Assembly: GCA_964640155.1 (NCBI GenBank)
Contig: CAZXEQ010000001.1
Span: forward strand, 30,001-62,000
DNA: 32,000 nucleotides
Source: an uncultured bacterium
GTDB lineage: Bacteria > Auribacterota > JACPWU01
Direction of reading: 5' to 3'
Part shown: one piece after another, positions 3,001-20,540 of the stretch
Layout: every line of letters begins with the position of its first letter
Numbering within the stretch: position 1 is the stretch's first letter
Translations under genes and position numbers: made by a program
Notes under the pieces: model-generated
Database searches by the model: none
What the model was told of the DNA's origin: nothing
What the model saw: only the letters and a program-made list of their open reading frames with translations

Positions 3001-6000
3001 TTAAGGAACCTCTTAAATTCCCATTATCAATGCTAGAAATCCAGCTTTCAGCAGGTTGCAATCTCTGCTGAGGAAGTCTAGAATTTTTTGGGAAATATGC
3101 CGCATAGAAGAATCCTCTATGTCTTGGGAGTGTAGATAAGGTTTGTAAGGTACGTAGAGTAAGATCTCTAGCAAGATCTAAATCTAAAACTCCTAAATCA
3201 CGTAATACCGCAATACTGACAAGATAAAAACCAATATTGGTAATACGATGAATAGGGTTGGTTGGAACCAGGCCATTACCTCGAATAGCTGCGGTGTCAT
3301 AAATCAAACCTGTCTCAGGGTCAACTTTGCGACGCATGGACTCCCATGTGGACAACAAAGAATTTCCTAGTTCTCTTTCGTCCGGTTGTAAACCGATTGA
3401 CGCTCCAGTCACACGCGGCCGAACTGCAGTGCCAGAGTCAGGCCTAGGTTGAGCATAAGCTGTAGGAATAAGAACATCACTGATTCTATCCCATAAAGTA
3501 GGCGAAGTCGTCGTACTCATTCTTACTCCCCATCCACCTGAAGGGAGTGGAGACAGAGAAACGGGGAAACCTCCTTGAACTCTTGTGCCACTTGTTTCTG
3601 TACTAGAATCAGATAGTAGTGCGCCTAAAGAAACTCTCTCTGTTGTTAAAGGAGCGATTGAAGGCAATGTGTTTGATTCAGCTCTTGGTAAAGCTGTTTG
3701 GGATGACAACATTAAATTCCAACGCGTTTGAAAAGCAGCAATATCCTCTGGAGAGAATTGAGTTTCTTCAAAAATTTGAATAATTTGTCTTCTAATGTCT
3801 ACTAATTCATCTTCAGAAAAATGTCTTCCTCTTAAGCTTTCTAATAATGAATTTAATCTTGTTCTAGCACGCATTAACCGGACCAACGTTTCTTGAGATG
3901 GTGCAGGCGTTATTTCAGGTCCATGTGCTGCTTGCTGAGAAGTCGTAGCTCTTTGTCTTGCAGCTTCTCGCCTTTGCCTTCTTAAATCTGTCCTCAAAGA
4001 TCGAATACTCTCATCTAATTTTGCCAATTCTCCTTGCAATAAAACTTGCTCTTGACGGATTTCATCCAAAGACCTTTCAGAAGTTGAAGTCGCGACATTC
4101 CCTGATCGTTCTTCAGCATGCTCAACCAGTCTTTCCAAAGAAATACCCAAAGGTAAAAGATATGCTTTTAAAACCTCTCTTTTTTGAGAAAAATCAGAAA
4201 GAGCAGAAAGAAAAACACTTAATGCTTCTTGATATCGAGTATAAGTCATAATCCATTGTCCTGCTCCAACGGTACTTGTTGTTTCTTCCGCTGTATAGGA
4301 TTCTCGAAATTGTCTCCAAGCTGTTTTCTGAGCTTCAAAATATCTTTGAGCTTCAATCACCCTTAAAACAGAATCTTGAAAATCTTGAATTTTTGCTTCC
4401 AATTCAAGCCCCATCTCCCGACGACGTTCACGTAACTCAGATTCAGCTCCCGCTAAACGAATACGCGCAATTCTTCTTTCAGAAGAAATACGGCCTCCTT
4501 CATACAAGGCAAAAGTCCATTCAGCTCCTGCCCCTACGGCCCCTGACAAAAGTTCTAGCCCCGACCCTCTCAAATTCAAACTTCCTAAATGGTGAAAAAT
4601 TGGAGTTGTAACATCAAATTCTGCGCCTTCCACATGATGAACTTCCGGTAATACGGCACGGTTCAAAGGACTGTTCGCAGCATTTGGATTTGAAAAGAGA
4701 CTTCTAAGTCGTGCATCTACCCATGAATCAAAACCAACTTGATCTCTTAACCATGCTGGCACTTGATCATTTAATTGTGCTGTAGGAGGGAAATCCACAT
4801 CTCTTCCCAACAAGACTCTCAAGCGTTCTTCAGCCATGGCCACAGGATGCTCAGCCAATAAAAGTCTCTGAGTTGCTTCTAATCGCTGAGCATCGTTAGA
4901 GTCTCTCAATGTTGTTGATCCTGAAACAGCAGCTTGTTCAGTATATCTTCTTTGAACTGTGCTTATGAATTCTTGAACAGTCGCTTGATCAGAGCGACGA
5001 ATTTCTTCAACTCTTCTTGCTAAAAGCAAATCATGATAAGCCTGCATTAACTCAAGTGTTGCGCGAACTCTTTCTCTTTGAAAAGAAGCTTGAGCCTCAT
5101 CTAAACGATGCTGAGCTGCTCCAATAGAACGAAAATTTGACCATTGAAGATTCAATGTCGCTTCACCCGTGACAGCTTGATTAAATCCTGCACGAAGATA
5201 ATCCTGTGCGGGAGCAGGAGAAATGGATCCAATATTTGTACTGATTAAACCTGCAGAAGTCCTCATAGTTAAAGGTTCTCTAACTTGATTTGTTACAGCA
5301 TCAATTACGCCCTGTCTTGCTTCTTCAACACGGTGATGAGCCCTCTGAATTGAAGGTAAAGCATTGGGTCCTTCAGGATCCAATGCCATTGCCAAAACTC
5401 TCTCAAAACTCAAAATCTGTGGAGAACGAGTAGGCGTAGGTCTTTGTACATTTACTCTTAATGCTTCTTGCCAATCTCTAGAATAATGACTTCTCTCTTC
5501 ACCATAATGCATTAATATTCTCACAGCTGATCGAAAACTTCGTACAGCTCTATCTAATCTTTGTAAGGCTTCTACTTCTTGAACCCGATCTTCCAAGACT
5601 GTTCCTTCATGAACATTGGGGTCCATATTTGCAACAACATTAGGATCGAACTCTTGACCTGTCATGCGCAAGTGAAGCTGTAAAGCTTGTCGAATTCTCA
5701 CAAGATCCGCTTGAATTTCTCTAATCTGATTCAAACTTTGTTCATAATTTCTATGAGCAGCCGATAAATCTTGTTCCTTTTGCCGTAAATACACAGCTCT
5801 TTCTGTTTGGGCATCTTCCATGGCTTGTTCGGCCCGACGCTGAACAGCATCTCTTGAACTTCCTCCAAATCGACCTGTTAAAGTGAGCATCACTTCCCAT
5901 CCTGGAATTGGAGAAGGCGTAGGAGAGGGTGGCTGAAGAGAAAGAGGATTTTCAGGATTTGATGCTAAAACCCGATCAGGTCGGTCTACAAACCCACGTC

Positions 6001-9000
6001 CTCTTAAATCAAATTCAATGGGACGAAGACTCCCCGCAACGGATGACAAGCGACGATTTCTTGCAACATCAGCCTCTAAAACCCTTAAACGCGCTGAACC
6101 ATCATAACCTGTCGATAATTCAAGTAAGTCTCCTGATGGAATTTGTAATGCATTAATCATCTCATCGGTGACTTGACCCATCCCCATCAAATGAAGAATT
6201 TCTATTTTGATTTGACGCAATTGCGTCTCTGCTCGGGTCTTTTCAGCTTCTGCTCGTCTTAAAGCCTGCTCTTGCCCTTGTATGACCAGACTTCCATATA
6301 AATTCGTATGGGCATTCATATACTGAACAAAGGGTCGTCTAAAATTGATTTCTTGATCTAACTTTGCTATATCTTCCTGTAAATCTTGATACCTTAAAAA
6401 TTTATCCGATAAAGATTCAATCACATGGCTGCGCTCTTGATCAATTTGAGCTCGAATATGCGACTCTAAAACTTCAGCGGCATCAATTTCTTCTTGAGTA
6501 GCACCTAACCAAGGAAGCATCCCTGTAATAGCAACACCCGCACCTAAATTAGAAAAAATGCCTTGTTCAGAAAAAGTCCGATCAGGAGAGAAAAAATCAT
6601 GTCCAGAATCTGCAGCATGAAAAGTGTAGTAAACTTGAGCTCTCGCAAAAATACTCAACTGTGGCCTACGGCTAGCACTAGCTAAAGCTCGTCTAGCTTG
6701 TGCCAAACGAAGTTCTGCGTTTAATCTTTGAATATTTGGATTATTTTGAACCGCTCGAGCTAAAATATCATTGCGCTGAATACCAGATAAGGCTTCTGGC
6801 GTCAACCGTTGCGTTTGTTGAACTGTTTGAATTTCCGCTTCCATCCATTGCGCCCTAGCTTGAGTGTATCCCTGTAAAGCTTCTACTTGCCTTCTTCTCA
6901 CTTCCAAACGTTCTCGCATCGTTCCCAATCGAGCTGCCACATCGTCAGGAATAACTTCTGAGGTAGGAAGCTGCGGAATAGTTGCTAACATATTTAAAAC
7001 CGTCATACGATTTCGCCAATCCAATTCAAATTCCTCGCGATGAAATTGATTGGTTCTACGATCATTGTCTCTTGCTACCCTTAACAAACGACGCTGTTGT
7101 TCAACAACTTCTCTTGCTGCACCTGTATATCCTAAATTTGATAAAACATATCCAACTGATAAATCTGCTCCAAGCGTACCTGTCCATGCTCCTCCTACAT
7201 CAAATCGAGGATCAAAATTAATTCTCCTCATCCCTTCAACAATCACACTTGCATCAAACGTAAAACGATTACTTCGATCCATCACAGATCTTTGGGCTTG
7301 AAGAGCTCTGTCTCGAGCCGTATAAAGAAGTTCGGGATCAAGTCTGTGACTTCGAATTAAAGTTTCCTCCATAACCCCATTTACTTCGTTAATTACAGCC
7401 GTTGTAAAATCTGCTCCCTGCAAGCCTTGTATTCTTGTAACAAATTCAGGAGAAAAACCTCTCACATGAAGATTGCCTCGACGAGAAAAACCCATTTGCC
7501 GCGCTAATTCTGTCTGAGCACGATGTAAAACAGACTCAGCTTCTCTTAAAAAAACACCGGCCTGTCCTCGAGCCGCTTCAACATTACTAAACTCTGCATC
7601 AGATAAAGTTTGCCCCGTATGAAGAGCCTGAGCAGCATTGTATAAACCATTTACATCTCTTTGATATTCTCTAACCATCTCAACTTTTAATTGAGCCATT
7701 AACAAACTGACATAAGCTTGTACCGTATCCATCACCACTTGATGTCTATCTCTTTGAGCCATCTGACGAGCAACATCCCAATTCCTTAACGCAAAATGTG
7801 TAGCAGCGGCACGAACTGGATCAAACCGATAACCAAATCTTAAAACTGCCGAAACTTGCAACCAATTTAAAGGTTGTGCAAAAGATCCATCATCATCGGC
7901 ATGACCATAGAAAGTAAAATTTCGATAGTCTCCTCTTAGAATAAGATGAAGTCCTATTCCATTTGCCCCCTCTTGAAAATCATACATGGCTCTGGCAACA
8001 TCCGCTTCAGTTCTTGGAAGATGATCATGATGATTTAAAGCTTGTTCAATAGTCTGACGTAAATCCATTTCTGCAGGTGGAACGGGTTCTGGAAGAGCTC
8101 CTGTTTCAGTGGTAGGAGAAGTAGCTGCCTCGCGTGCCAGCATTTGTCCTCGATTTTCAGTCATCTTAGCTCTCAGAGTTCTTCTTCGTTCTGTGGCTTG
8201 ACCAAGATTTTGTCTCAAAGCTTGGATTGCTTCTGAACTCCCTGGTTCGAGAACAACAGAAGGCACGCCTGGTTTTTGCTCCACTGAAGAAGTTGTCGTA
8301 GTTTGAACGACCAAAGCACCATTTTGATTTGATGTTGTTGAAGTCTGTATGTCTGTGCCAACAGCCCTAGGAGTCAAAGCGGCAATTTGTTGATCCAATT
8401 GATGTTCGGCCTCCTCTAGAACTTGTACTACAGGAACAGAAGAAATAGGAGTCTCTGAAAAAAGAGTTGAAGAAGAATTATCAGGAAGAACTGTCACAAC
8501 AGGCCCTGGCGATGCCAATGGAGAATGAGAATCACCCAAAATCCCTGAACTTTCTGCTGCATGATAAGCAACCCCTCCTGCCATCACTGCAACACTGGCA
8601 TAACCTAAACCCTCCACACCTTTTAAAACTACACGCGTTGGAATAGAAAGTGCTAGAGGATTCCATGCTAGCTCTAACAATGCTCGATCTTCTTCACCCA
8701 ACTTCCCTTTATAATCCAAAAGATCTTCCGCTGTAATCTCTTCTTTTCTCTCAATCTTTTCTATCATTTCCCCTAAAACATCTCTCAAAGGACAAGCATG
8801 ATCTCTTAGAGCTTGATAAAGAACCCAAAGTCCTCCATGGGGATTCCGATCAAAATGCTGACGATGGGTCATCTCAGTCTTTAAAGTGTCCATATCGACA
8901 GGGCGAGATTGATGATATTGACCTAAAAGGGCATCAAAAACTTCTTGAGACATATCTGATCTAATTTGAAATGCTTTTGCCTGTCCTTTTACATCTACTT

Positions 9001-12000
9001 TTAAAATTGCAAAAGGTTTACCTTCATGATAAATCAATTGTACTTCTTCTCTTGCACTCACTACTTTCTCGTCTTCCAATCTTTCAGAAGACTCCACAGC
9101 TTCACCAATTAAATATTCCACCGGATCCAATTCTCTGAAATAAACAAGCCGTCCATGTACAAACTCACAAAAAAGACCCAATTCTGGATAAAATTTTGGA
9201 CCTGTAAAATCTTTTTTTGAAGCCTGAGGAAGATCAAAAACCTTTGCTGTTGTCTGATCATAAAATCTAACAGGATTACCCTTTTGATATTCCACACGGA
9301 CATTGACTTTTCGACGGGCACTGAGTAATTTCCCTTCTAAAAATTGAGCAACATAAGTCTCACTTTCCCATCGACCCGTAAAATTTTCATCGACAGGCTG
9401 AGGAATTGCTAAAGGGGCTGCTCCTTTCCCAAAAGGATCTACAAAATCATAAGCATACACAAAACCAGGTCGTTCTTTACTTTTTAGCTCTTGAACTTTT
9501 TCTGAAGTCATTACTCCTTTTTTTACCAATCGATCTAACGCTTCTGATGTGAAAAGTTCAAAATCATCTGCTGAAAAACCTGTAAAGTTGGCTGACAATT
9601 CAAAAGATTCAGGTCCAGGAATAGAATAGGCCGCTGAAGCATGGTCTCTTGCACTTAAAGAAACGCGTGAAAAACCAATTTCTTTTTTCCCCTCTCGATG
9701 GACAAATCGAACATCCTCTTTTCCTACCACATCATGAAGATCTAACCAATGACCTAATTGTTCTGGACGCAAACCTAAAGGTTTTAAACTGGAAACTCGA
9801 GCTAATTCTTCTTCAATGGCAGATGTTGCTTTTAATAATGCCTCTTTTAAATTATCCTCAAAATTTTCATCATCTAAACTTCCATAAGCCAAATTAATGA
9901 CAATTTTCTGCCCATCCCAAACAACCATTTCAGGTTTCTTTGCAAAATAGGCAGCAACTCCTTCTATTACTTTCCAAACAAGTCCTAAGGCAAATCCTAG
10001 CGTAATCGAAATAAAAGTTTTTGAAATAAACTTCCCAATCAAACTCAAAATAGAAAACGTCCAGCGGGCTGTAATTCCTTCAAGTTCCCTTATTCCCCAA
10101 ACCAAAGAAATCTCTTTCCTGAAACCCTGCCAAATAGAAGGACGAGTTTGATTGCTCTCCACTTTCAATTCAGGTTTATGAATCACAGCGACTCTCACTC
10201 TAGCGGCTTCTTGCATTTGGGCTAAAAATGGATATTGCGTCAAAAGTGTTTGACGCCACTGAACTAAACTCTGATGACCCGCTAACACCTCAGACCCTTC
10301 CATTAAAGTTTCCACACGTTCTAAATCTCCATCTGAAAACTTGCCTTCACCTTTTTGGGTAGGATCTACAAAAAGAATAACGGGAGGATATTCAACAGTC
10401 ACTTCCGGTCCTGCACGATGGGGATGAATCATTTCATCCAGCCAGGATTTTCTTTCGCTTTGAAAATTTCCGAACTTCTTAAAGAATAAGGCAAAGAAAA
10501 CAGCTACATCTTGTCCACGACCTGCCAAATCTGCCAAAACTTCCTGGGCAACACGCTTTTTCTCACCTATATTTGTAGAATGCGTCAAACAAGCAGCTAA
10601 ACGCTTCAACTGAAACTCATTCATCTCCACAAAACTTGCTTCTGGACTTAATTCTTCTGCTTTTTCAATCACTCCTACTTTTAAAATAATTCCCATCGGT
10701 TGGCCATATACAACCACAGGAATATAATAATCATCTCCTAATCTTTGAATTTTCTCTGAATCCACTTCCACGGCTGAAAGAGCATCAGAAAGTCTTTCTC
10801 TTATTGACGCAGCCTCTTCATCACTCAGAAGTCCTTCCCGGACGCGATTGAGCAAAAACCCATTTAAATGAGCTGTATGTTCTTTCGTATTACCCCGCTC
10901 CATTTCTCCAGCCTGCCCCTTTTTCCCTTCAGTAACCAATTTCGTTACTTGAGCACTCGCCAAAATTCTCATTAAACTCAAAGCTACACGGACGGAAACT
11001 TGCTGGGCTTCTGCTTTTGTTCCAGCCACTCTTCTAATCTCTGGATCTGCAATCTCTGCCAAAAAACTTGCTAATGCTGAGGGCAACATATTCAGCATCA
11101 AAGGGCCTAACTGATCGGAATTTCCACGATAAGCCACCAGTGGTATTTGCTTCGAACTCGTATCTGTTGAATCGGAAGGTTGAGAGAGAAGTTTCGATAA
11201 AGAAACTTTACCTTTTACTTCATTCTTCTTACTTAAAACTTTCATCTCTTGTTCCATCGAAGAAAGTTCATCATCCATAATGGAAAGATAAGGAGTTTTA
11301 AGCTTCAATTTGGTTACTTTTGGAGTAATAATCACATAAGAAATACCCTTTTCTTCTAACTGCTTTGCAATCCCCTCTGAATGAAATCCTCCTGCCACAA
11401 GCACAGCAACAGGACTCTTAGCTTCTTTCATGGACTCCAACATATTTTGAACCATCACCTTGTCACGCTCTTTAGCAAAATCATAAAATTGTTTTAAAGG
11501 TTGAATATTTTCATCTAAAAAATTGATATCTGGAACATCGAAAGTCCGATCTACACTTAAAGAAATTTCTTTCAATCGAACTAATAAGTTGGAGGGTTTT
11601 AATTTTTCTTCATTTTCGTAGTAGTAAGACAAACCTGAACGCAAAAGCTCTAAATGATAAAAATCGCGAAGAAGCTTTAATGATTTGCCAATCTCAAACA
11701 AATCTTTTTGTTTTGGATCTTTTAAATAGGCTGCCTGTAAATCTTTTAAAATTTGATCACATTCGCCAAATAAAGCCTCGCTATCAATTTCATTAAAAAT
11801 TTTCACCATTTCAATATAAGAAGAAAGATTAGGATAACTTTCTAAAGAAACTTGAGCCTTTAAAACAGCTTTTTCTAAAGAGCTATAAAATTCATATGCC
11901 TTTATTTTCTCCAAACGATAATAAAGCCCTTGGGTTAAAAGATCTGCGAACTCCTCTTTAGCAACCTTCTTAGAAAGAACATTCATTAAATCCTGTCGTT

Positions 12001-12853
12001 CTTGTTCTACTTTATTGATTTTGATTTTCTTCTCAAGCTCTTTGACATCCATCATCTTCTTGATATTCATGCTTCCAGAAATATTTGAAAGCCCGAGAGT
12101 CTTTACCTGAGCCAGAAGAAACTCAACATAAGCAGCAAATCCTATTTTATCCTGATTGTAGTCTTTCTCTTTTTTGAGAAGATTTTTAACTTCCGATGGA
12201 TAAATTTTATCTTCAAGAACTTTCACTTCATTTTCTAATTGAGTTAAAAGCCCATCTGCTTTTTCCTGAACGGACATAGATTTTTGGAAAGCAAGAAAGT
12301 TATTAAAATAAAGAGGAAGATTTTCAATACCTTTCATCAAAAGGGGCTTATCTTGAACAATCGAGAGATATTCAGCTCCCGTAATTTTCCCCTGTTGAAG
12401 CAAAAGTCGTGCAACTTGTTTACGAATTTCAACTTGAGGGAAAGCTGTGAATAGAGAAGTATCTACCAAACCAGAAGCAGCTTCTAAACCAATCAGTTTT
12501 AAACCATGATCAGAATGTTTTTTGAAAAATTCATTGAGAATTTTTGCAGAATTGGATTGAGCTTCGAAATTACAGTGAAGATCTTGAATGTGAATAATCA
12601 GGGGTTGATTTTGACCTTGAAACTTGGATTTTATAAACCCCAGACTGGGACTTACATGAAATTCGGATACGGTAGGAGAGCTGGATGATGATTTAGACTT
12701 TTGAACAGGTGATTCATTAATTTCCAAGCCTCTTGCAAAGGCAAAATCACTACACAAGAAGCTAAAAGCAACAAGAACTGAAGTAATTCGGATTCTTATC
12801 GAAAAACCGTTCTTTTTTGTAAAAAAATTCCGGGATTGATATTTCCTAACCAT
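2..12853 (-). CDS. Giant multidomain envelope protein; N-terminus complete, C-terminus beyond the window edge (at least 4,284 codons visible)
   Basis: I hand-translated the minus-strand frame (codon low coordinate = 2 mod 3) across all 214 sequence lines. The ATG is at 12853-12851, with GGGGAG 6 nt upstream and an in-frame upstream stop at 12884-12886. No stop codon occurs down to nt 2. The protein starts MVRKYQSRNFFTKKNGFSIRIRITSVLVAFSFLCSDFAFARGLE. A complete-ORF track would omit it because it has no stop in the window, and no other frame in 1-12853 holds a long ORF. Confidence 0.9.
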   Translation of the reverse strand, partial: MVRKYQSRNFFTKKNGFSIRIRITSVLVAFSFLCSDFAFARGLEINESPVQKSKSSSSSPTVSEFHVSPSLGFIKSKFQGQNQPLIIHIQDLHCNFEAQSNSAKILNEFFKKHSDHGLKLIGLEAASGLVDTSLFTAFPQVEIRKQVARLLLQQGKITGAEYLSIVQDKPLLMKGIENLPLYFNNFLAFQKSMSVQEKADGLLTQLENEVKVLEDKIYPSEVKNLLKKEKDYNQDKIGFAAYVEFLLAQVKTLGLSNISGSMNIKKMMDVKELEKKIKINKVEQERQDLMNVLSKKVAKEEFADLLTQGLYYRLEKIKAYEFYSSLEKAVLKAQVSLESYPNLSSYIEMVKIFNEIDSEALFGECDQILKDLQAAYLKDPKQKDLFEIGKSLKLLRDFYHLELLRSGLSYYYENEEKLKPSNLLVRLKEISLSVDRTFDVPDINFLDENIQPLKQFYDFAKERDKVMVQNMLESMKEAKSPVAVLVAGGFHSEGIAKQLEEKGISYVIITPKVTKLKLKTPYLSIMDDELSSMEQEMKVLSKKNEVKGKVSLSKLLSQPSDSTDTSSKQIPLVAYRGNSDQLGPLMLNMLPSALASFLAEIADPEIRRVAGTKAEAQQVSVRVALSLMRILASAQVTKLVTEGKKGQAGEMERGNTKEHTAHLNGFLLNRVREGLLSDEEAASIRERLSDALSAVEVDSEKIQRLGDDYYIPVVVYGQPMGIILKVGVIEKAEELSPEASFVEMNEFQLKRLAACLTHSTNIGEKKRVAQEVLADLAGRGQDVAVFFALFFKKFGNFQSERKSWLDEMIHPHRAGPEVTVEYPPVILFVDPTQKGEGKFSDGDLERVETLMEGSEVLAGHQSLVQWRQTLLTQYPFLAQMQEAARVRVAVIHKPELKVESNQTRPSIWQGFRKEISLVWGIRELEGITARWTFSILSLIGKFISKTFISITLGFALGLVWKVIEGVAAYFAKKPEMVVWDGQKIVINLAYGSLDDENFEDNLKEALLKATSAIEEELARVSSLKPLGLRPEQLGHWLDLHDVVGKEDVRFVHREGKKEIGFSRVSLSARDHASAAYSIPGPESFELSANFTGFSADDFELFTSEALDRLVKKGVMTSEKVQELKSKERPGFVYAYDFVDPFGKGAAPLAIPQPVDENFTGRWESETYVAQFLEGKLLSARRKVNVRVEYQKGNPVRFYDQTTAKVFDLPQASKKDFTGPKFYPELGLFCEFVHGRLVYFRELDPVEYLIGEAVESSERLEDEKVVSAREEVQLIYHEGKPFAILKVDVKGQAKAFQIRSDMSQEVFDALLGQYHQSRPVDMDTLKTEMTHRQHFDRNPHGGLWVLYQALRDHACPLRDVLGEMIEKIERKEEITAEDLLDYKGKLGEEDRALLELAWNPLALSIPTRVVLKGVEGLGYASVAVMAGGVAYHAAESSGILGDSHSPLASPGPVVTVLPDNSSSTLFSETPISSVPVVQVLEEAEHQLDQQIAALTPRAVGTDIQTSTTSNQNGALVVQTTTTSSVEQKPGVPSVVLEPGSSEAIQALRQNLGQATERRRTLRAKMTENRGQMLAREAATSPTTETGALPEPVPPAEMDLRQTIEQALNHHDHLPRTEADVARAMYDFQEGANGIGLHLILRGDYRNFTFYGHADDDGSFAQPLNWLQVSAVLRFGYRFDPVRAAATHFALRNWDVARQMAQRDRHQVVMDTVQAYVSLLMAQLKVEMVREYQRDVNGLYNAAQALHTGQTLSDAEFSNVEAARGQAGVFLREAESVLHRAQTELARQMGFSRRGNLHVRGFSPEFVTRIQGLQGADFTTAVINEVNGVMEETLIRSHRLDPELLYTARDRALQAQRSVMDRSNRFTFDASVIVEGMRRINFDPRFDVGGAWTGTLGADLSVGYVLSNLGYTGAAREVVEQQRRLLRVARDNDRRTNQFHREEFELDWRNRMTVLNMLATIPQLPTSEVIPDDVAARLGTMRERLEVRRRQVEALQGYTQARAQWMEAEIQTVQQTQRLTPEALSGIQRNDILARAVQNNPNIQRLNAELRLAQARRALASASRRPQLSIFARAQVYYTFHAADSGHDFFSPDRTFSEQGIFSNLGAGVAITGMLPWLGATQEEIDAAEVLESHIRAQIDQERSHVIESLSDKFLRYQDLQEDIAKLDQEINFRRPFVQYMNAHTNLYGSLVIQGQEQALRRAEAEKTRAETQLRQIKIEILHLMGMGQVTDEMINALQIPSGDLLELSTGYDGSARLRVLEADVARNRRLSSVAGSLRPIEFDLRGRGFVDRPDRVLASNPENPLSLQPPSPTPSPIPGWEVMLTLTGRFGGSSRDAVQRRAEQAMEDAQTERAVYLRQKEQDLSAAHRNYEQSLNQIREIQADLVRIRQALQLHLRMTGQEFDPNVVANMDPNVHEGTVLEDRVQEVEALQRLDRAVRSFRSAVRILMHYGEERSHYSRDWQEALRVNVQRPTPTRSPQILSFERVLAMALDPEGPNALPSIQRAHHRVEEARQGVIDAVTNQVREPLTMRTSAGLISTNIGSISPAPAQDYLRAGFNQAVTGEATLNLQWSNFRSIGAAQHRLDEAQASFQRERVRATLELMQAYHDLLLARRVEEIRRSDQATVQEFISTVQRRYTEQAAVSGSTTLRDSNDAQRLEATQRLLLAEHPVAMAEERLRVLLGRDVDFPPTAQLNDQVPAWLRDQVGFDSWVDARLRSLFSNPNAANSPLNRAVLPEVHHVEGAEFDVTTPIFHHLGSLNLRGSGLELLSGAVGAGAEWTFALYEGGRISSERRIARIRLAGAESELRERRREMGLELEAKIQDFQDSVLRVIEAQRYFEAQKTAWRQFRESYTAEETTSTVGAGQWIMTYTRYQEALSVFLSALSDFSQKREVLKAYLLPLGISLERLVEHAEERSGNVATSTSERSLDEIRQEQVLLQGELAKLDESIRSLRTDLRRQRREAARQRATTSQQAAHGPEITPAPSQETLVRLMRARTRLNSLLESLRGRHFSEDELVDIRRQIIQIFEETQFSPEDIAAFQTRWNLMLSSQTALPRAESNTLPSIAPLTTERVSLGALLSDSSTETSGTRVQGGFPVSLSPLPSGGWGVRMSTTTSPTLWDRISDVLIPTAYAQPRPDSGTAVRPRVTGASIGLQPDERELGNSLLSTWESMRRKVDPETGLIYDTAAIRGNGLVPTNPIHRITNIGFYLVSIAVLRDLGVLDLDLARDLTLRTLQTLSTLPRHRGFFYAAYFPKNSRLPQQRLQPAESWISSIDNGNLRGSLIALRGAYLRDQSLQGRAILQIIDRIIFGETREGRVIQPPQDLSVFLDRQYHDPQDPNSQYLALVLTPALDDLSQPFPPQRAFRFLGAPASSPINHINLNLFGGEFGSEATLTTLLGVAMGEMPMERLTDLRVRVYNPRPGLVAPMSFFGASFQIGIPPLLTNVDENASAYRSLLQGEAQLRVDRGSRLDPSSFEGLGLNTQGLWADLRDNGHYIDNDGRVLDSVRTLDSADDLQLGAAYTSKKNDIFLILHQVSLRQGMMAAHSASLVNNRGDYAGELGLRELRMVRNWDPSYETVFTPHAAFLALPFVASYTDVTTSLQTLRVRYPGHEAQEATADHGATQAQLPAYHTNLGWVDAVNLERSEVVGRTVALNDAMGLLALAQALGANPGDYVDHTLSDPAFRAQVQTHLPNRRNPIHTMAELGQALDPVLRAQVRRDQHVEIPAPRPNPHLHLRSGQTTLERGRQILEALSQSRLQLPQAVVVPEEDYERVDLTARSGTGWDGHAFPFWNVEQHNELARQDAERRRSDRALSVERWRSREAARERAIEDEWHEREARREDDSRIRERRLAELERDYARRQAATRTEVRSLLSLLRDFSLRPHVRHMRGSPSLVSGGAVSGVLNSLGAAVGDGRVMNLNDWTLVFDRYARSRNMSASDMQTYFSNIHRVIPLLRSGALSGSPLPDFLANSFEALIPMETLDLFSNRDIGAGVNLKFLGLASYYALFLMQHPMADAALREHIEHDSLLFRGISNVAHRRSVTEGFPQGAMLSPVLQPAEAANVDPTIRDLRRLAYHDRLFRQRVFNAEFQKVSDGERSQGRNAMRGPLAGFYSQVTGASRQFNENYASQGYLTVWDTYVRSRPQGVSIETLGEVVSAIHSRVNRFYHGQIRVRDTARLAYWRALGNIAQANAVMQLSRESVSMARDVAWANFALNYLKDANDTPEDLARKLSAWLDKLERFRSAVEVLYGHLDLDSSRDIGALSSWVRLAESVDARPEQFR
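1840..3340 (-). other. Glucoamylase-like (PF10091/DUF3131/GH144-type) (alpha/alpha)6 glycoside-hydrolase-like domain of the giant protein (aa about 3,170-3,670)
   Basis: Motifs TNPIHRITNIGFYLVSIAVLRDLGVLDLDLARDLTLRTLQTLSTLPRHRGFFYAAY...WISSIDNGNLRGSLIALRGAY and YHTNLGWVDAVNLERSEVVGRTVALNDAMGLLALAQAL. They resemble the GFFYhW...S.iD...L and GyGf.DafN...iDqGp.l motifs of that family. Recalled from memory, not searched. Confidence 0.45.
4142..8068 (-). other. Six OEP (TolC-type) repeats forming three TolC-protomer-sized units inside the giant protein (aa about 1,596-2,904)
   Basis: Three consecutive units of about 425-435 aa (about nt 8068-6800, 6799-5500 and 5499-4142). Each opens with a TolC-like N-terminal motif: MDLRQTIEQALNHHDHLP; LSGIQRNDILARAVQNNPNIQRLNAELRLAQARRAL; ILSFERVLAMALDPEGPNALPSIQRAHHRVEEARQ. 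Each also contains OEP signatures such as ATLNLQWSNFRSIGAAQHRLDEAQASFQRERVRATLELMQAYHDLLLARRVEEIRRS and AEWTFALYEGGRISSERRIARIRLAGAESELRERRRE. Confidence 0.75.
9941..10063 (-). other. Internal hydrophobic transmembrane segment(s) of the giant protein (aa about 931-971)
   Basis: Translation WTFSILSLIGKFISKTFISITLGFALGLVWKVIEGVAAYFA, flanked by charged residues. Confidence 0.5.
11300..12680 (-). other. N-terminal module of the giant protein, paralogous to the neighbouring 1,063-aa protein; ChaN/TraB/GumN/Tiki-like His motifs
   Basis: Giant PLIIHIQDLHCNFEAQSNSAKILNEF...LKLIGLEAASG aligns with neighbour TVLLVQDAHCNFEAQRNTSEILNSL...IPLIGLEGAQG. Giant FYDFAKERDKVMVQNMLESMKEAKSPVAVLVAGGFHSEGIAKQLEEKGISYVIITPKV aligns with neighbour FYEFALQRDEAMLNASLQGMEEKKVSLMMLVTGGFHTQGIAQALKEKDISFFIITPKV. 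The spacing between the two His motifs is about 390-400 aa in both proteins. The superfamily assignment is an inference from this motif pattern. Confidence 0.6.
12731..12853 (-). other. Predicted Sec signal peptide of the giant protein (aa 1-41)
   Basis: Basic n-region (RKYQSRNFFTKKNGFSIRIR), hydrophobic core ITSVLVAFSFLC and an AFA-R cleavage-like site. Assigned by eye only. Confidence 0.55.
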
Positions 12854-12904
12854 TTGCAACTCCCCGCCCCCCAGTTTATATAACTACTTCTCTCTCTTTA
12901 GTTA

Positions 12905-12913
12905 ATTATACCA
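12905..12913 (-). promoter_or_regulatory. Alternative extended -10 element (TGGTATAAT) upstream of the giant gene
   Basis: The minus strand reads TGgTATAAT at 12913-12905, about 50 nt upstream of the ATG. Confidence 0.35.
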
Positions 12914-12937
12914 TAGAGATGCAAATTTCACATATAT

Positions 12938-12966
12938 GCTATACCACATGAAATATCAGATGTCAA
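12938..12966 (-). promoter_or_regulatory. Candidate sigma-70 promoter for the giant gene (TTGACA-17 nt-TATAGC)
   Basis: On the minus strand, TTGACA is at 12966-12961, followed by a 17-nt spacer and TATAGC at 12943-12938. The site is about 85 nt upstream of the ATG. Confidence 0.4.
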
Positions 12967-13027
12967 ATTTCGACATAAAGATTCTTTAACGTATAAGTTT
13001 ATTTTATAAGCAATTTTAGATTAAGGC

Positions 13028-13552
13028 TTAAGGATTTGTATTTTTTGAATCTTGGGATGTTACTTTTTGATCAGAAGGCAGATTATTGGTGGGCCCTCGC
13101 TTCAAACCAGCCAAATAGTTCTCAAACCAGACAGGAACTTGATAACCATGGGTCTTAGCCAGCTTCAAATGGGCCTCAGATTTTGAAACATCAGGAGGGT
13201 TTTTTCTGGCAAAACTGATCGCAAGAGAATAATGGGTCAAAGCAAACTTCTCATCCATTTTCAGGCCTTTTTCAAGTTCCTGAATAGCTCTTGTAAAATC
13301 CTCTTTCCCCATCCAACATACGCCATAATACACTTGAGCTTTGACGTTGGAAGGTTCACTAGATAACACTTTTTCAAAAAGCGGCAAAGCTTCTGCATAT
13401 TGAGCTTTTTGATAAAGATCATGCGCTTGGTTAAAAATAGCTTGTGTATCTTCTTCTTTTTGAGCTGGATCAGAAGAAGAGATAGGTTCTGAATAAACAT
13501 TTAATCCAAATGTTAAAACCAAAAGAAGATTCCAAAATACAATTTTTCTCAT
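13028..13552 (-). CDS. Secreted TPR-repeat protein (174 aa)
   Basis: ORF track entry. N-terminal signal peptide MRKIVFWNLLLVLTFGLNVYS. TPR-like repeats (AIFNQAHDLYQKAQYAEALPLFEKVLSSEPSNVKAQVYYGVCWMGKEDFTRAIQELEKGLKMD). AAGGA Shine-Dalgarno about 8 nt upstream of the start. Confidence 0.75.
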   Translation of the reverse strand: MRKIVFWNLLLVLTFGLNVYSEPISSSDPAQKEEDTQAIFNQAHDLYQKAQYAEALPLFEKVLSSEPSNVKAQVYYGVCWMGKEDFTRAIQELEKGLKMDEKFALTHYSLAISFARKNPPDVSKSEAHLKLAKTHGYQVPVWFENYLAGLKRGPTNNLPSDQKVTSQDSKNTNP

Positions 13553-13656
13553 CAGTTCATTCCTTAAGTTTGGAGAGAGCTACGAGTTAAGAACCGGCAC
13601 GGCCAAGTAGGTATATAGTAGCTTTACTACAAGAACTAGCCCTATAGGGTTTGCTG

Positions 13657-13729
13657 GTCATCCCCGAATGTTTTAATCGGGGATCCATTTGTATACAGTG
13701 GATTCCCGCTTACAGATTGCGGGAATGAC
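13657..13729. repeat. Cloverleaf-like triple hairpin (GC-rich structured element) in the intergenic spacer
   Basis: Outer stem gtca 13657-13660 / tgac 13726-13729 encloses three adjacent hairpins: tccccga 13661-13667 / tcgggga 13677-13683; tcca 13684-13687 / tgga 13699-13702 around the palindrome tgtataca; ttcccgc 13703-13709 / gcgggaa 13719-13725. Confidence 0.5.
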
Positions 13730-13797
13730 AATCTTTGTAGTTAAACTTAACACGTTTGTATTAATTTCTTTATATCCCTTAACTCTTGGCCCTATTT

Positions 13798-16700
13798 TTA
13801 CGCCGATTGTCCTAAAACCTCATCTTCCATACCACCCAGCGCATTCAACTCTTGCGATGCATCCATGCTGGGCTGAGGAGGAAGATCCATATGACCTTCA
13901 ACAGCAACTCCCTTTAAAGCTCCCACAATTTTCTCTCGAGTCATTCCTGTACGAGCTAAATTCTTCTCTAATGCATCTACCAATTCTTGAGGGGGTTCAA
14001 ATTTTTCCCCTGTTCCTACTAAGCTCTTAACTTCATTGACAATCACGACAGCTTCTGTAAAAGAAGTCGCTTCTCCCAATTGACCTTGTTCAATAACAAA
14101 TGCCAAATGCTTGGCCAAACGGCCCGCTAATTTTTCCTTACTTTCTACAAAAAGAACAATGTTTTTTGCATCTATTTTTACTTTTTCAGCAATAGCTCGA
14201 GACAATGTATCCAAAATATTTTCTTCTGCCTTCTTTTCAGAAATCACATCATTAACTCCCACAAAAAGCGCTGCATCGCCAGGCAACCCAAATAAATTCA
14301 AAATATTCTGCCTGACTTGAGCATACGCAGAAGCAGGGACACTTTCATCCAAACTAATTAAAGCTAATTTTAAAGTTTGCTCTGCAGGGGTTCCTCTGAC
14401 ACGAGCAATGAGATTCTTAATTGTAGCAATGACTTCTCCTGCTTGAACGCTCGGCTTAGCTTGCACACTGCCATTTTCAACGGTCACAGATTCAAAAAGT
14501 AAATTAGTTAATAAACCAATGGCCATGGGTTCGGTAAAATCTTTTTCGTACAAACTTGCAATCGATGCACCTTTTTCCTCCAAAGTAAGCCGCGCTGATG
14601 TGGCAACTCGCTCTTTATTACGCACGTCAATACCCACTTCAGGATTTACAGCCAATTGATCTTTAAATCTAATTTTCAAATCTCCATAAAGTCTTGCAGC
14701 TATCTCAAAATCAGAAACAGAAACCGCAGCTGTATAAAGTGCATCCACCATGCGCTTGGCTTGATTCAAATCATCCAAAGCAAAAGTGATTTCTAAGTCA
14801 GCTAAAACTTTTCCTAAACTTTCAATTGTTACATCACTCGAAGCCAGACGATCAAATAAAACTTGTGCTTTGTCTCCATCCACTTCCACGCTCAAATTTT
14901 TCAAAGCTGCTATCAACCATTGATTTCTCAAAGCCGTCTGAGCATTTGAAACATTTTGGGGAGTTTCAAACGCAGAAAAAGCAATAATACCCTCACTTGA
15001 ATCCATTGAGCCGGTTACATCTCCTCCATTGACTCGCGTTGGAACCAATCCTCGAGATGCCGCGCGAGCTTGAATATTTGCTGGCGCCTTTTCTCCCTGA
15101 CTCAAAATCACAACACTTTCACGGCGACTGACTTTCCCGTCTTCACCTTTGACTTCATAGGAAATAGGCATTTCTACATAAGTGATTCCATTCTCAACCT
15201 TTAATCGAGGGGGTGAAATCCAAACTTGTTCGGCCCCTAATTTTTCTCTTAAAGACGCGAGATCTTGATAAGCCTTTAACAAGGCTAATTGTAAAGTTAA
15301 AAGAGCTTGCCCCTTTTGATAAAAAGGTTCTAGCGTCATTCGAAGAATTGCAAAAAGCTCTCTCATGCTGCGCCTGCGTCCATCGGACATGGAATCTTTT
15401 GCTGTGACCAACGGGACTTGAACAGCCAAAGCACTCCCCTGACTCAACCATTGATCGAGTGGAGACAATTCATTCATCAAAATTGAAAAATAGGGAATTG
15501 GGACATTTTTCTGAATCACTTTGGGAGTAATAATAAAAAAGCTAATATCTTTTTCTTTGAGTGCTTGGGCAATTCCTTGGGTATGAAATCCCCCTGTTAC
15601 AAGCATCATCAAAGAAACTTTCTTTTCCTCCATCCCTTGCAGTGAAGCATTCAACATCGCTTCATCTCTTTGTAACGCAAATTCGTAAAAAGCTTTAAAC
15701 AAACTTGTCACTCCTTCTAAATTCTTCAAATCTTCAGGAAACACAAGAGGAACTTGTCGATCATCTGCTATTTTAGCTAAAGGAGAAACGATTTTATCCC
15801 ATTCAAATTCATCTGAGTGCTTCTGAAAATATTCAAACTCTGAATTTGAAATACGAAAATGACAAAGGCGGGTAATCAAACCTACTTTTACATCAATTTC
15901 ATTTAATTCCTTCTCTTGAGCACTCTGAAGTAGTTTTTCTTTTAATCCATTTGTTAATCCTTCGATTTTTTCAAAAAGTTCTGGCTCCAAAATTTCTTTC
16001 ACATGATAAATATAATTGTGATAAATAGCCACTTGAGGGAAGTTTTTAAGATCAATATTTCTATCTTTTGAAAGACGAAATAAAAATCCATAATATTTCC
16101 ACGCTGAAAGGCGATTGGTTTTAAAAAGAAGAGTTTGAGAAAGTAACTGGCCTGAAATTTCAGGAGCTAAATCTTTACTCAATTGATTGATTAAGTCTGC
16201 CCTTTGTTTTTCTAACAATTCAAAATCAAGCTGCTTTTCCAGCATAAAAACATTCTGTTGCTCAGCAACAACCGATTGAGGATCAACCTTATGCCCGACG
16301 CTTTCAGCAAAATCCATCAAACTCGAGAAATAAGGTTGAAATAGAATCTCCCCTCTTTCATAAGATTGCAAAATGCGATCCAATTCAAACATCTTCTTTG
16401 AATAAACTTTTTCTTTCAGCTGATCTAAATTTTCCTGAAGTGCTTGAAAAGCAGGTTCAAACTTCTGAAAAGAACGATAAGCATTCCTAAATGCTTCCAA
16501 ATTTTTAAAATAAAGATCACGAGACTCAACGCCCAGAAGTTCTGTCCCCTTGGCCAAATCAGAATTAATCACAAAAAATTCTGGTCCGGTAAGCCAGGCG
16601 TCCTTCAAAAAAGAATATGTAATCTCTTGAACAGCCTGTCGATTAGGATCAGAGGCAAAAAGATCTTCTTCAAACTCACCTTGTGCGCCTTCTAAGCCAA

Positions 16701-16989
16701 TCAAAGGAATGGCTTTAGTTTGACTTAAAGAATTCAAAATTTCAGATGTATTACGCTGTGCTTCAAAATTGCAATGGGCATCCTGCACCAACAGAACGGT
16801 TTTACCTGATTTCCCTTTAAAAGACCCATTCACTTTTCCAAAAGCTTCACTAAAGTCCGGGGTATAAGTTTCTTGCTTGTCTGAAAAAACAGGAGAAAGG
16901 AAAATAAAACTTGAGAAATAAAGAGAAATGAATACCCAATGGAAAAGCCCTAACCGTTTTAAAGAGAAATTCTTAACTAAAAAAGGCAT
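13798..16989 (-). CDS. Large secreted or anchored protein (1,063 aa), paralog of the giant protein N-terminal ChaN/Tiki-like module; C-terminal half unassigned
   Basis: ORF track entry. Hydrophobic N-terminus LGLFHWVFISLYFSSFIFLSPVFS. The motifs VLLVQDAHCNFEAQ, LIGLEGAQG and LVTGGFHTQGIAQALKEKDISFFIITPKV are shared with the giant ORF. Confidence 0.85.
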   Translation of the reverse strand: MPFLVKNFSLKRLGLFHWVFISLYFSSFIFLSPVFSDKQETYTPDFSEAFGKVNGSFKGKSGKTVLLVQDAHCNFEAQRNTSEILNSLSQTKAIPLIGLEGAQGEFEEDLFASDPNRQAVQEITYSFLKDAWLTGPEFFVINSDLAKGTELLGVESRDLYFKNLEAFRNAYRSFQKFEPAFQALQENLDQLKEKVYSKKMFELDRILQSYERGEILFQPYFSSLMDFAESVGHKVDPQSVVAEQQNVFMLEKQLDFELLEKQRADLINQLSKDLAPEISGQLLSQTLLFKTNRLSAWKYYGFLFRLSKDRNIDLKNFPQVAIYHNYIYHVKEILEPELFEKIEGLTNGLKEKLLQSAQEKELNEIDVKVGLITRLCHFRISNSEFEYFQKHSDEFEWDKIVSPLAKIADDRQVPLVFPEDLKNLEGVTSLFKAFYEFALQRDEAMLNASLQGMEEKKVSLMMLVTGGFHTQGIAQALKEKDISFFIITPKVIQKNVPIPYFSILMNELSPLDQWLSQGSALAVQVPLVTAKDSMSDGRRRSMRELFAILRMTLEPFYQKGQALLTLQLALLKAYQDLASLREKLGAEQVWISPPRLKVENGITYVEMPISYEVKGEDGKVSRRESVVILSQGEKAPANIQARAASRGLVPTRVNGGDVTGSMDSSEGIIAFSAFETPQNVSNAQTALRNQWLIAALKNLSVEVDGDKAQVLFDRLASSDVTIESLGKVLADLEITFALDDLNQAKRMVDALYTAAVSVSDFEIAARLYGDLKIRFKDQLAVNPEVGIDVRNKERVATSARLTLEEKGASIASLYEKDFTEPMAIGLLTNLLFESVTVENGSVQAKPSVQAGEVIATIKNLIARVRGTPAEQTLKLALISLDESVPASAYAQVRQNILNLFGLPGDAALFVGVNDVISEKKAEENILDTLSRAIAEKVKIDAKNIVLFVESKEKLAGRLAKHLAFVIEQGQLGEATSFTEAVVIVNEVKSLVGTGEKFEPPQELVDALEKNLARTGMTREKIVGALKGVAVEGHMDLPPQPSMDASQELNALGGMEDEVLGQSA

Positions 16990-17044: not shown

Positions 17045-17073
17045 AATATAGCTTAAAAACCTTCGAAAGTCAA
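17045..17073 (-). promoter_or_regulatory. Candidate sigma-70 promoter for the 1,063-aa gene (TTGACT-17 nt-TATATT)
   Basis: On the minus strand, TTGACT is at 17073-17068, followed by a 17-nt spacer and TATATT at 17050-17045. The site is about 55 nt upstream of the ATG at 16989. Confidence 0.45.
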
Positions 17074-19160: not shown

Positions 19161-20540
19161 TTAGAAGCTAACTAAAATCTCGCCTCTAATTTCGAAAGCT
19201 GTATCATCTGGGGTGTAAGCTGCTCCAGGCAAGAACCAAGCCAAATAGAGCTGTGTGCTTACATCTTCAGTGTAATCATACTCAGCAACGACGTCAAATT
19301 CGTTACCAAGATCATTATCACCGCCATTGGTCAATGTTGGGATACCGCCATTGTCCTGGAAAGCATCTCCCATAGACATGACTGCATCTTCAACTTGCCA
19401 ATAGTGATAGTAATCTAATGCCAAAGTAAGATTTTCCATAGGAAGAACGCTCAATTTAGCATTGATGAAATGAATATTCTCCAGTCGAGGACTGAAAGCA
19501 TATCCGTAGTAGTTGTATTCAAAGAGTTCCTGGAACCCTTCGTAATCAGCAGTACCACCTGTACCTGGGCTATCTTCTCCAGAAGCATAAGTATATGCAA
19601 CTGAAAGAGAAGGATGCCATGCAAAATCAAAGGTATAAGAAGCACCCAAATTAGCTGCCCACGCTTCTAAATCACGTGTGGAGCTATATTGATTGAACTG
19701 ATAATCCCCTTCGGCCCATAATTGCAAAGCCTCAATAGGATTAACATCGCCTCTTAAACCAAACGTCACAGGTTGATAGTGTGTTTCACCATCAGCAATA
19801 CCCATGATATAAGCTTCAGCATTCCAACGATCAGCAGCATAATGACCATTAACAATATACAAGCTGGCATCATCTGCATTGGTCGCTGTAATAGCTTGAG
19901 AGCTTCTTTCGGCAAGACGTGCATAGACTGCATCCACAATAATTGGATAATAGTCTAATGTCGCACGAATCGCGTCGAAGTTAATCTCATGTTCGTTATC
20001 GCTGACAAGGAAACCCTTGCCGAAGTTAAGATATTGACGACCCACTTTTGCAGTCAATGGCTGATAATAAAGCTCACTGGCTTGAATGTAGGCCTGACTT
20101 ACCCTAACTTCATAACCATCTTTTTGTCTTCTGGCCTGACTGGTGGTGTTTTCATCAAGATGAAAACTACCATCGATGTCAGTGGTGCCATCAGCATTAC
20201 GGATGGTTGCACTGCTGCTAGGTAAACCAAGAGCTGCTGCTGCACTTGCAGATGTTTCATCGCTGTGAACAGCTTTGTCACCTGCAATACCAGAAGCTTC
20301 AAGCTCAATAGCTACCAGGACGTTATCTGTAAGATCGGCTTCAACATTGATTCTTGCACGTTGGGCAAAATAGCCGATATCATCATCTGCTGGTCCCGCA
20401 TCATCAATGAGATCAATGACGTTTGAGCTGAAAATACCACGATTTCTCAACTCGCCAGAGACCTTCACGTTCTGAACTTCAGCGGATACTACACCAGAGA
20501 TGAGGACAAGCATTGCGATACTCGAAAGTATCTTTCTCAT
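19161..20540 (-). CDS. Outer-membrane beta-barrel porin, alginate-export (AlgE)-like family
   Basis: 459 aa. Signal peptide MRKILSSIAMLVLISGVVSA. Motif KVGRQYLNFGKGFLVSDNEHEINFDAIRATLDY resembles the AlgE-family GRQ..fG.g.l...w.n..r.FDg motif. Alternating beta-strand pattern and a C-terminal ...ILVSF with terminal Phe. AGGAG Shine-Dalgarno 10 nt upstream of the start. Confidence 0.75.
   Translation of the reverse strand: MRKILSSIAMLVLISGVVSAEVQNVKVSGELRNRGIFSSNVIDLIDDAGPADDDIGYFAQRARINVEADLTDNVLVAIELEASGIAGDKAVHSDETSASAAAALGLPSSSATIRNADGTTDIDGSFHLDENTTSQARRQKDGYEVRVSQAYIQASELYYQPLTAKVGRQYLNFGKGFLVSDNEHEINFDAIRATLDYYPIIVDAVYARLAERSSQAITATNADDASLYIVNGHYAADRWNAEAYIMGIADGETHYQPVTFGLRGDVNPIEALQLWAEGDYQFNQYSSTRDLEAWAANLGASYTFDFAWHPSLSVAYTYASGEDSPGTGGTADYEGFQELFEYNYYGYAFSPRLENIHFINAKLSVLPMENLTLALDYYHYWQVEDAVMSMGDAFQDNGGIPTLTNGGDNDLGNEFDVVAEYDYTEDVSTQLYLAWFLPGAAYTPDDTAFEIRGEILVSF

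Follow-up and report, generated by a model that had tools for sequence, protein, structure and literature searches.

Among the known members of the TIKI/Ere/ChaN/TraB superfamily, TIKI and RRSP cleave peptide bonds and the erythromycin esterases (Ere) a lactone ester, and TraB/PrgY targets a peptide pheromone. The longest predicted proteins in biology are those of Omnitrophota and their relatives. The active site of the superfamily has been defined as two His and two Glu residues (E3900, H3902, E3930 and H4030 in RRSP) plus a basic residue, R4001, and this 2His/2acid/Arg set of RRSP was shown to be catalytic by mutagenesis; in Bcr135 the site residues are H85/E113 (PMC6254334). The N-terminal regions of the giant Omnitrophota proteins are described as generally without identifiable domains, apart from peptidase domains of the C39 and S8 types located there (West-Roberts et al., bioRxiv 10.1101/2023.11.21.568195). 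Here we describe a 32,000-nucleotide stretch of DNA from an uncultured Auribacterota bacterium (contig CAZXEQ010000001.1), referred to below as the window, in which two large genes, separated by a small tetratricopeptide repeat (TPR) gene, encode proteins with the same N-terminal module. The longer product is called the giant; the shorter one, the product of an open reading frame (ORF) of 1,063 codons (P0011), is called p2 and provides the residue numbers used throughout. We consider it probable that this module is an exported His/Glu hydrolase head with a TIKI/erythromycin-esterase/ChaN/TraB-type core and a helical insertion.

A shared module with a putative active site

BLASTP of giant residues 1-600 against p2 returned a single collinear alignment with 151 of 533 positions identical (28%, E=3e-64), which spans giant aa 8-537 and p2 aa 6-515 and is far beyond chance. 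Thus, the N-terminal modules of the two proteins are homologous. The initial annotation, made from the sequence alone, had described such a collinear module; this is borne out, with the correction that its length is nearer 480-520 aa than the proposed 450 aa. The motifs quoted there were likewise found, namely VQDAHCNFEAQ (p2 aa 68-78) and IQDLHCNFEAQ (giant aa 89-99), LIGLEG/LIGLEA, and GGFHT/GGFHS followed by ITPKV. The distance between the first and the second His is 397 aa in p2 and 398 aa in the giant, within the claimed spacing of 390-400 aa.

To evaluate conservation, 166 diverse sequences with about 30% identity to the window copies were aligned. Q69, H72, Q78, E100, G153, R441, G466, G467, H469 and P489 are invariant, while D70 (98%), G51, E155, E251, F434 and Y435 are conserved in at least 98% of the sequences. 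Moreover, several tyrosines are nearly invariant (Y160, Y196, Y323, Y326, Y435 and Y500), and the conserved positions within the helical insertion described below include Y196, E251, R263, Y323, Y326, F434, Y435 and R441. Both window copies retain the full residue set, which in the giant corresponds to D91, H93, E124, R463 and H491. The spacings agree with those of the superfamily: H72 and E100 are 28 residues apart, exactly as H3902 and E3930 in RRSP and H85 and E113 in Bcr135, R441 precedes H469 by 28 residues as compared to 29 for R4001 and H4030 of RRSP, and an acid stands two residues before the first His, so that D70-x-H72 parallels E3900-x-H3902 of RRSP.

An AlphaFold2 model of the full module (p2 aa 1-530, 19 sequences) is confident, with a predicted local distance difference test (pLDDT) score of 86.3 and a predicted TM-score (pTM) of 0.78. 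It consists of an alpha/beta core split by an all-helical insertion of about 300 aa (aa 157-455), in line with the long helical insertion that had been suggested from the sequence. In a Foldseek search of the PDB with the full module, EreC (6xcs_A) ranks first (E=0.018, probability 0.93, 421 aligned columns) and HopBA1 eighth; the other matches are dominated by long helices. For a core-only model the insertion was cut out (aa 45-168 joined to 428-508), and the remaining sequence was aligned to full-length relatives and refolded, yielding a pLDDT of 91.5 and a pTM of 0.88. In both models strands alternate with helices, in agreement with the mainly parallel central beta-sheet and flanking helices of the TIKI/Ere/ChaN/TraB superfamily core, and conserved His, Glu and Asp residues are located at the C-terminal ends of the core strands. 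With the core as query, the best match is HopBA1 (5t09; E=3.4e-4, probability 1.00, TM 0.42/0.40), and RRSP (6a8j/6a7h/5w6l) and EreC are found with probabilities of 0.72-0.96 and 0.91, respectively. TIKI-superfamily chains account for nine of the top 13 matches among 350,542 PDB chains. Alpha/beta folds of the RecA/KaiC/helicase type reach probabilities of only 0.1-0.3.

At the level of sequence profiles, PF04187 (ChaN) was matched by 9 of 23 diverse family cores, from which the helical middle had been removed, at E<=1 (best E=1e-3, always below the cut-off), and is the sole Pfam family matched by more than two of them. The giant module matches PF04187 with E=0.13 over aa 451-495, PF01963 was matched by a single core (E=0.015), and neither the module nor the cores showed a Pfam match to the erythromycin esterase family PF05139. 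Two further weak matches were rejected. PF01609, a DDE transposase family (giant aa 459-547, E=5.6e-4; two of the 23 cores), overlaps the RD...GGFH motif, stays below the cut-off and has no transposase fold in the models to go with it, and the weak matches of PF23202 (PAH_ZNF598) to the helical insertion of relatives were judged to be helical noise.

Based on the modelled superfamily-level fold, the structural matches and the putative catalytic residue set, we conclude that the module represents a new, very divergent family of the TIKI/Ere/ChaN/TraB superfamily; it is regarded as a new family, rather than as a member of an existing one, because the Pfam ChaN matches stay below threshold. We further conclude from the models that its architecture of core plus helical insertion most resembles that of the erythromycin esterases, in which an insertion comparable in position and kind is present. 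The earlier guess of a ChaN/TraB/GumN/Tiki relationship is thereby supported by the core matches to HopBA1, RRSP and EreC and by the conserved residues and their spacing. The structure and profile check proposed at that time came out in favour of the guess through its structural half, which returned the superfamily as top matches, while the profile half remained at sub-threshold PF04187 matches and the hhalign result given below.

Several points weigh against an enzyme of this superfamily. The Foldseek TM-scores (0.40-0.43) are under the usual 0.5 mark for a shared fold, with root-mean-square deviations (RMSD) of 6.5-9 Å, the core model was built from a computationally excised sequence, and neither ChaN (2g5g) nor Bcr135 (3b55) is among the top 50 matches of the core. 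The spatial clustering of D70, H72, E100, R441 and H469 is read from strand ends. Furthermore, the p2 match to PF04187 (E=4e-4, aa 428-471) scores 20.9 bits against a cut-off of 27.7 and covers only profile positions 162-204 of 213, an NCBIfam search of both modules returned nothing, and PDB searches with a single sequence, a full-module profile and a core profile gave chance matches only (coiled coils, MotY). An hhalign comparison with an enterobacterial TraB/GumN alignment (E. coli YbaP relatives) yielded a probability of 3%, with a poor template (effective number of sequences, Neff, 2.1); with single-sequence YbaP no significant match was obtained, the listed YbaP relatives being close enterobacterial orthologues. 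Some superfamily members are not enzymes, as ChaN binds haem and PMT C1/C2 are without the catalytic residues. Finally, in the three tails of family members that were scanned against Pfam (P0019, P0021 and P0022, all Omnitrophota), PFK, UDPGP, PGM/PMM and GPI domains were found, that is, sugar-phosphate enzymes of cytoplasmic type that are placed behind a signal-type leader and fit poorly with export; the same puzzle of cytoplasmic domains has been noted in the recent literature on Omnitrophota giants.

The low TM-scores and large RMSD values, together with the negative TraB/GumN and PDB profile searches and Pfam matches that are all below cut-off, could also be accounted for by a new alpha/beta family without homology to the TIKI superfamily, in which a generic three-layer parallel sheet with functional residues at the strand ends arose by convergence and whose function could be anything. 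We regard such convergence as rather improbable: nine of the top 13 core matches come from one small superfamily with other Rossmann-like folds far lower, the full-length model independently ranks EreC first, the Pfam match of p2 independently points to the same superfamily, and residue identities as well as spacings (acid-x-H, 28, E; R, 28, H) agree with the published catalytic residues.

Within the superfamily, the module might instead be a non-catalytic, ChaN-like exported head that binds haem, a metal or a cofactor through the conserved His, Glu and Arg residues, for example in iron or haem capture coupled to the TolC-like part of the giant. PF04187, the family of the haem-binding ChaN, is the sole recurrent Pfam family, His, Glu and Tyr (several of the latter nearly invariant) are typical ligands, and outer membrane efflux protein (OEP) repeats and an alginate-export-type porin gene provide an envelope context. 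However, the sub-threshold PF04187 match is restricted to the RD...GxxH region common to the whole superfamily, the structural matches are to the hydrolase members HopBA1, RRSP and EreC with ChaN outside the top 50, the conserved set is exactly the catalytic 2His/2acid/Arg set of RRSP (PMC6254334), and the window contains no iron or haem uptake genes. A binding head of this kind therefore appears unlikely to us, and a hydrolase remains our preferred interpretation of the module.

A large family of N-terminal heads

A word-indexed homology search retrieved just 10-15 relatives, all from metagenome-assembled genomes (MAGs) of Omnitrophota, the Planctomycetes-Verrucomicrobia-Chlamydiae (PVC) group or Elusimicrobia and none with a functional name for the module, and thereby badly underestimated the family. 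By an exhaustive profile search the count was corrected to 10,240 cluster representatives with E<=1e-3, of which 7,114 reach E<=1e-30. Among the GTDB species representatives, a scan confirmed at least 551 loci, most of them labelled Omnitrophota and some Auribacterota or, according to the submitters, Planctomycetia. The best one stems from a MAG of Candidatus Auribacterota and shares 87% identity with p2, so that the window most likely belongs to Auribacterota, a phylum of the PVC group. Neither the module nor TolC, ChaN or Tiki is mentioned in West-Roberts et al. (bioRxiv 10.1101/2023.11.21.568195) or in a 2026 Omnitrophota preprint.

In all of the 150 best matches the module starts within the first 80 residues. 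These proteins comprise 482-5,568 aa with a median of about 1,950 aa, and many are cut by contig ends. Of 165 members, 143 have a hydrophobic segment at the N-terminus, and in 133 it is the only one. Past about aa 600, no resemblance to the giant was seen in any of the 165 proteins; tail similarity among the relatives themselves was found for 106 of the 140 that are longer than 700 aa. Proteins of at most 600 aa (24/165) are heads without a tail, and because many heads thus occur without any tail, the head itself has a function.

In 11 of the loci analysed, module genes stand in tandem on the same strand. The tandem partners are usually 26-37% identical, with each partner having closer orthologues in other genomes; L051, with three closer copies of 46-55% identity, is the exception. 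Some of the pairs are syntenic across genomes, with a long gene followed by a gene for about 550 aa in L044, L054 and L003 and two long genes in L027 and L041. L003 (1-13592; PVC-group MAG JAAEQR010000072) encodes a giant of 7,815 aa that contains a Peptidase_C39 domain, and directly behind it on this strand lie three module genes of 1,409, 529 and 573 aa. In the window, each copy ranks only about 180-210th of about 264 matches for the other one and has closer relatives elsewhere: the nearest relative of the giant head (37%) is encoded in Ca. Theseobacter exili (L072), and those of p2 are P0012 and L008. To judge from these rankings, the window pair is a pair of ancient paralogues of a very large family and not the product of a local duplication. 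A recent local duplication was rejected, as most relatives in other phyla are closer to the window copies than these are to each other.

The recurrence of such ancient pairs with conserved synteny suggests a partnership and, together with the strictly N-terminal position, the frequent hydrophobic leader and the freely varying tails, would also suit a non-catalytic head for export, anchoring or assembly, which holds long proteins at the inner membrane or links them to one another (e.g. by head-head heterodimers of the tandem products) and in which the invariant residues are structural. Polar His, Glu, Arg and Gln residues that are 100% conserved at strand ends across very divergent sequences are, however, typical of an active or binding site rather than of a scaffold, and the tail-less proteins point to a function of the head itself. 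We consider a purely structural role to be improbable.

TPR orthologues were found beside module genes in two loci only, L001 (E=6e-55) and L072 (E=2e-30). In L001 the order is P0012, a 57%-identical relative of p2, the TPR gene and then a LysM-YkuD gene rather than a giant. Four genes upstream of the p2 orthologue, L001 (1-7669) also encodes a 3,696-aa protein with a weak transglutaminase-core match, the N-terminus of which lies outside the locus. In L072 the TPR gene precedes a giant-type module gene, and the ORF upstream of it (2-964) shows weak homology to the C-terminus of p2 (24% over 267 aa, E=2e-5), its upstream part being lost at the contig end. Because L072 combines a homologue of the p2 C-terminus, a TPR gene and a giant-type gene, the trio appears, within the limits of the short L072 contig, to have been retained in a second Auribacterota genus. 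A broadly conserved trio was rejected, since TPR orthologues are adjacent to module genes only in Auribacterota loci and not in Omnitrophota loci. The neighbourhood check that had been proposed for the trio thus came out in favour of the earlier view within Auribacterota, with a p2-TPR pair in L001 and a trio-like set in L072, but not in Omnitrophota loci.

Tails, TPR gene and layout of the locus

The three-gene cluster described in the initial annotation was recovered at its coordinates on the minus strand, to which the genes of the window belong throughout (Table 1). The start codon of the giant is preceded by GGGGAG six bases upstream, and its product comprises at least 7,655 aa, the length encoded in an identical locus on Logan contig SRR8893623_72241 before the end of this contig interrupts the gene. 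The TPR gene is located 174 bp upstream of the giant, and the p2 gene another 245 bp upstream. The TPR protein scores above the Pfam cut-offs for TPR_2 (34.8 vs 27 bits), TPR_16 (35.3 vs 32.7) and TPR_19 (33.4 vs 25), and its N-terminus, MRKIVFWNLLLVLTFGLNVYS, looks signal-peptide-like by eye. The earlier description of a 174-aa secreted TPR protein between the large ORFs is therefore sound for the repeats, with secretion predicted from this N-terminus.

Table 1. Features of the locus, ordered by position in the window (coordinates are those of the 32,000-nucleotide stretch)
Feature	Position	Strand	Basis
Giant gene, partial in the window	2..12853	-	Open frame from ATG 12853 to window edge; 4,284 aa inside; predicted signal peptide, then head module, then long tail
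Giant aa about 1600-2900, TolC-type OEP repeats	4154..8056	-	PF02321 E=4e-22, 79.4 bits vs cut-off 22; four stretches within aa 2001-3000 and a further one at aa 1679-1788
Giant head module, aa about 60-535, Tiki/Ere-like	11249..12676	-	28% identity to p2; family hidden Markov model E=6e-167
Giant ERD (R463) to AGGFHS (H491), basic residue, then second His 28 residues on	11378..11470	-	Motif, conservation; weak PF04187 match aa 451-495
Giant LIGLEA (E124), conserved Glu at strand end	12479..12496	-	Motif and conservation
Giant IQDLHCNFEAQ (D91-x-H93), first acid/His pair	12557..12589	-	Columns 98-100% conserved, 166 sequences
Giant leader, signal-peptide-like, aa 1-41	12731..12853	-	Basic n-region, hydrophobic core, hydrophobic window aa 21-39; predicted cleavage between AFA and RG
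Promoter-like elements upstream of giant	12905..12966	-	TTGACA-17-TATAGC (12966-12938) and TGgTATAAT (12913-12905); by eye, absent from promoter scan output
174-aa TPR gene, between both module genes	13028..13552	-	TPR_2/TPR_16/TPR_19 at E about 1e-8; signal-peptide-like N-terminus
p2 gene, 1,063 aa	13798..16989	-	Lineage-specific tail of 530 aa behind leader and head module
p2 C-terminal half, aa 531-1063, ending in acidic tail GGMEDEVLGQSA	13801..15399	-	Sequence matches only P0012, L008 and the L072 ORF
p2 core part 2, aa 456-510	15460..15624	-	Strands 460-466, 483-489; GGFH (H469), ITPKV (P489), Y500
p2 insertion, all-helical, of about 300 aa (aa 157-455)	15625..16521	-	AlphaFold2, pLDDT about 90; presumed lid or substrate-binding domain
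p2 core part 1, aa 45-156, with D70, H72, E100, E155	16522..16857	-	Strands 51-57, 64-70, 96-99, 150-154 (AlphaFold2); conservation
p2 leader, aa 1-36, signal peptide or signal anchor	16882..16989	-	Hydrophobic window aa 13-31; low pLDDT, helical in model
Promoter-like site upstream of p2, TTGACT-17-TATATT	17045..17073	-	10/12 consensus match only

The earlier view of the giant as a TolC fusion holds, with PF02321 repeats well above the cut-off. Matches to the OEP/TolC profile cover giant aa 1679-1788, 2029-2224 and 2565-2683 with further stretches in between, and the C-terminal half of the profile recurs each 436-459 aa, which is about the length of one TolC protomer. The chain may thus hold three TolC protomer equivalents and form a single-chain TolC-like channel. 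Self-BLAST of the OEP region revealed no internal repeats, and the NCBIfam TolC model matched the giant weakly (E=1e-4, far below its cut-off). Because the tails of the family are mostly unrelated to TolC, the term 'accessory envelope system', which had been suggested for the duplicated module, fits this locus only and not the module in general. Further along the tail, giant aa about 3170-3310 (window about 2924-3346) resembles the cyclic beta-1,2-glucan synthase Cgs/NdvB (8rf9/8rf0 aa 1019-1121, E=1.3e-6) as well as 8xuj and the GH94-type 'Glycosyltransferase 36' (8wy1), which suggests a beta-1,2-glucan-acting domain. Between the head and the OEP repeats, a hydrophobic stretch at aa about 930-975 (window about 9970-10070), WTFSILSLIGKFISKTFISITLGFALGLVWKVIEGVAAYF, could form one or two membrane helices.

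The C-terminal half of p2 matches only P0012 (64%), L008 and, weakly, the L072 ORF upstream of the TPR gene, and has no match in the PDB. An acidic tail of the form G(M/L)E(D/S)E(V/F)L..SA-COOH ends p2 (last 12 residues, 13801-13836), P0012 and the L072 counterpart, and the TPR gene follows directly in all three cases. It is conceivable that a TPR clamp binds this tail of p2.

The genes beyond the trio are of housekeeping type (SpoU methylase, alginate-export-type porin, sigma-70 factor, PPDK, GlyQS and RecO). The porin gene (PF13372, E=4e-34; 19161-20540) and a gene for a TPR_21 protein lie within 19161-21584 on the same strand, 2-4 kb upstream. The claim that each large gene has its own good sigma-70-like promoter is weakly supported: besides the partial match for p2 and the elements seen by eye for the giant, promoter-like sites are not enriched in the region, with six found compared to 9.4 expected from shuffled sequences.

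Proposed function and comparison with known systems

In the mechanism that we favour, a Sec-type hydrophobic leader is followed by a domain of about 480 aa, in which the alpha/beta core is split by the helical insertion. The head would be exported, in favour of which the OEP/TolC repeats in the tail of the giant can be named, and would reside in the periplasm or on the envelope. There, D70-x-H72 and E100 could activate a water molecule, with H469 and R441 completing the site and the insertion serving as a substrate-binding lid, so that the head would cut a peptide or ester bond in the envelope. Such bonds are expected because they are what the known members of the superfamily cut. The role of the head is most likely the processing or release of the long tails, or the processing of a partner protein, an analogy being offered by TIKI, RRSP and TraB/PrgY as well as by the N-terminal C39 and S8 domains of Omnitrophota giants; alternatively, it may act on an external substrate. 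The tails would determine the job of each protein, here by means of TolC-type outer-membrane repeats and a domain resembling beta-1,2-glucan enzymes, and the small exported TPR protein would be an Auribacterota-specific partner of the pair.

A considerably wider picture can be drawn, which as a whole we consider unlikely. In this picture the module would be the signature catalytic head of a hitherto unrecognised class of long to giant exported proteins in Omnitrophota, Auribacterota and their neighbours, whose tandem heads pair and cut or remodel either their tails or an envelope component of a prey or host, while the Auribacterota TPR protein docks on the acidic tail of p2-type proteins. The locus would then encode a self-contained device that spans the envelope, with a periplasmic pair of hydrolase heads, an outer-membrane channel in which a single chain supplies three TolC-like protomers and, beyond this channel, a domain acting on beta-1,2-glucan.

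Irrespective of this wider picture, the head is a domain of more than 7,000 sequence clusters with a strictly conserved putative active site, is probably catalytic, and is not represented in Pfam or NCBIfam. It offers a concrete handle on giant proteins, namely a domain to annotate, five candidate residues and a hypothesis of envelope processing or attack, and would add to the TIKI/Ere/ChaN superfamily a divergent bacterial branch with a large helical insertion.

Compared to the erythromycin esterases (EreA/B/C, Bcr135/136; PF05139), the module is modelled with an alpha/beta core of the same kind, a His...Glu...His site and likewise a large helical part between the Glu strand and the second His. 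Its insertion of about 300 aa is, however, larger than that of Ere, it is preceded by a signal-type leader and followed by very long tails, in contrast to the single-domain Ere proteins of about 400 aa, and it lacks a PF05139 match and reaches a TM-score of only 0.2-0.4. RRSP, an effector of MARTX toxins, and the TIKI-fold protein HopBA1 are the best structural matches of the core, at a sequence identity of just 13-15% and without a helical insertion of this size. Like the window head, for which export is predicted, RRSP is one module of a giant multidomain exported protein, but as an internal effector domain delivered into host cells and not as an N-terminal head, and its first acid is Glu where the module has Asp. 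ChaN (Cofac_haem_bdg, PF04187) is exported, as the module would be, but is a small haem-binding lipoprotein, and its alignment to the module covers only the C-terminal 40-45 profile positions.

TraB/PrgY/GumN and the metazoan TIKI proteins (PF01963) are extracytoplasmic, membrane-tethered domains that act on peptides or protein N-termini and share with the module two His motifs, a Glu and a basic residue; their first motif is GxxH, in contrast to QDAH in the module. In TraB/PrgY the membrane segments are C-terminal, whereas the anchor of the module is N-terminal. Although their fold is unrelated to that of the module, the peptidase domains (C39 and S8) of the Omnitrophota giants (bioRxiv 10.1101/2023.11.21.568195) have the same placement, i.e. 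a hydrolase-type domain beside a signal peptide at the N-terminus of very long proteins in the same phyla.

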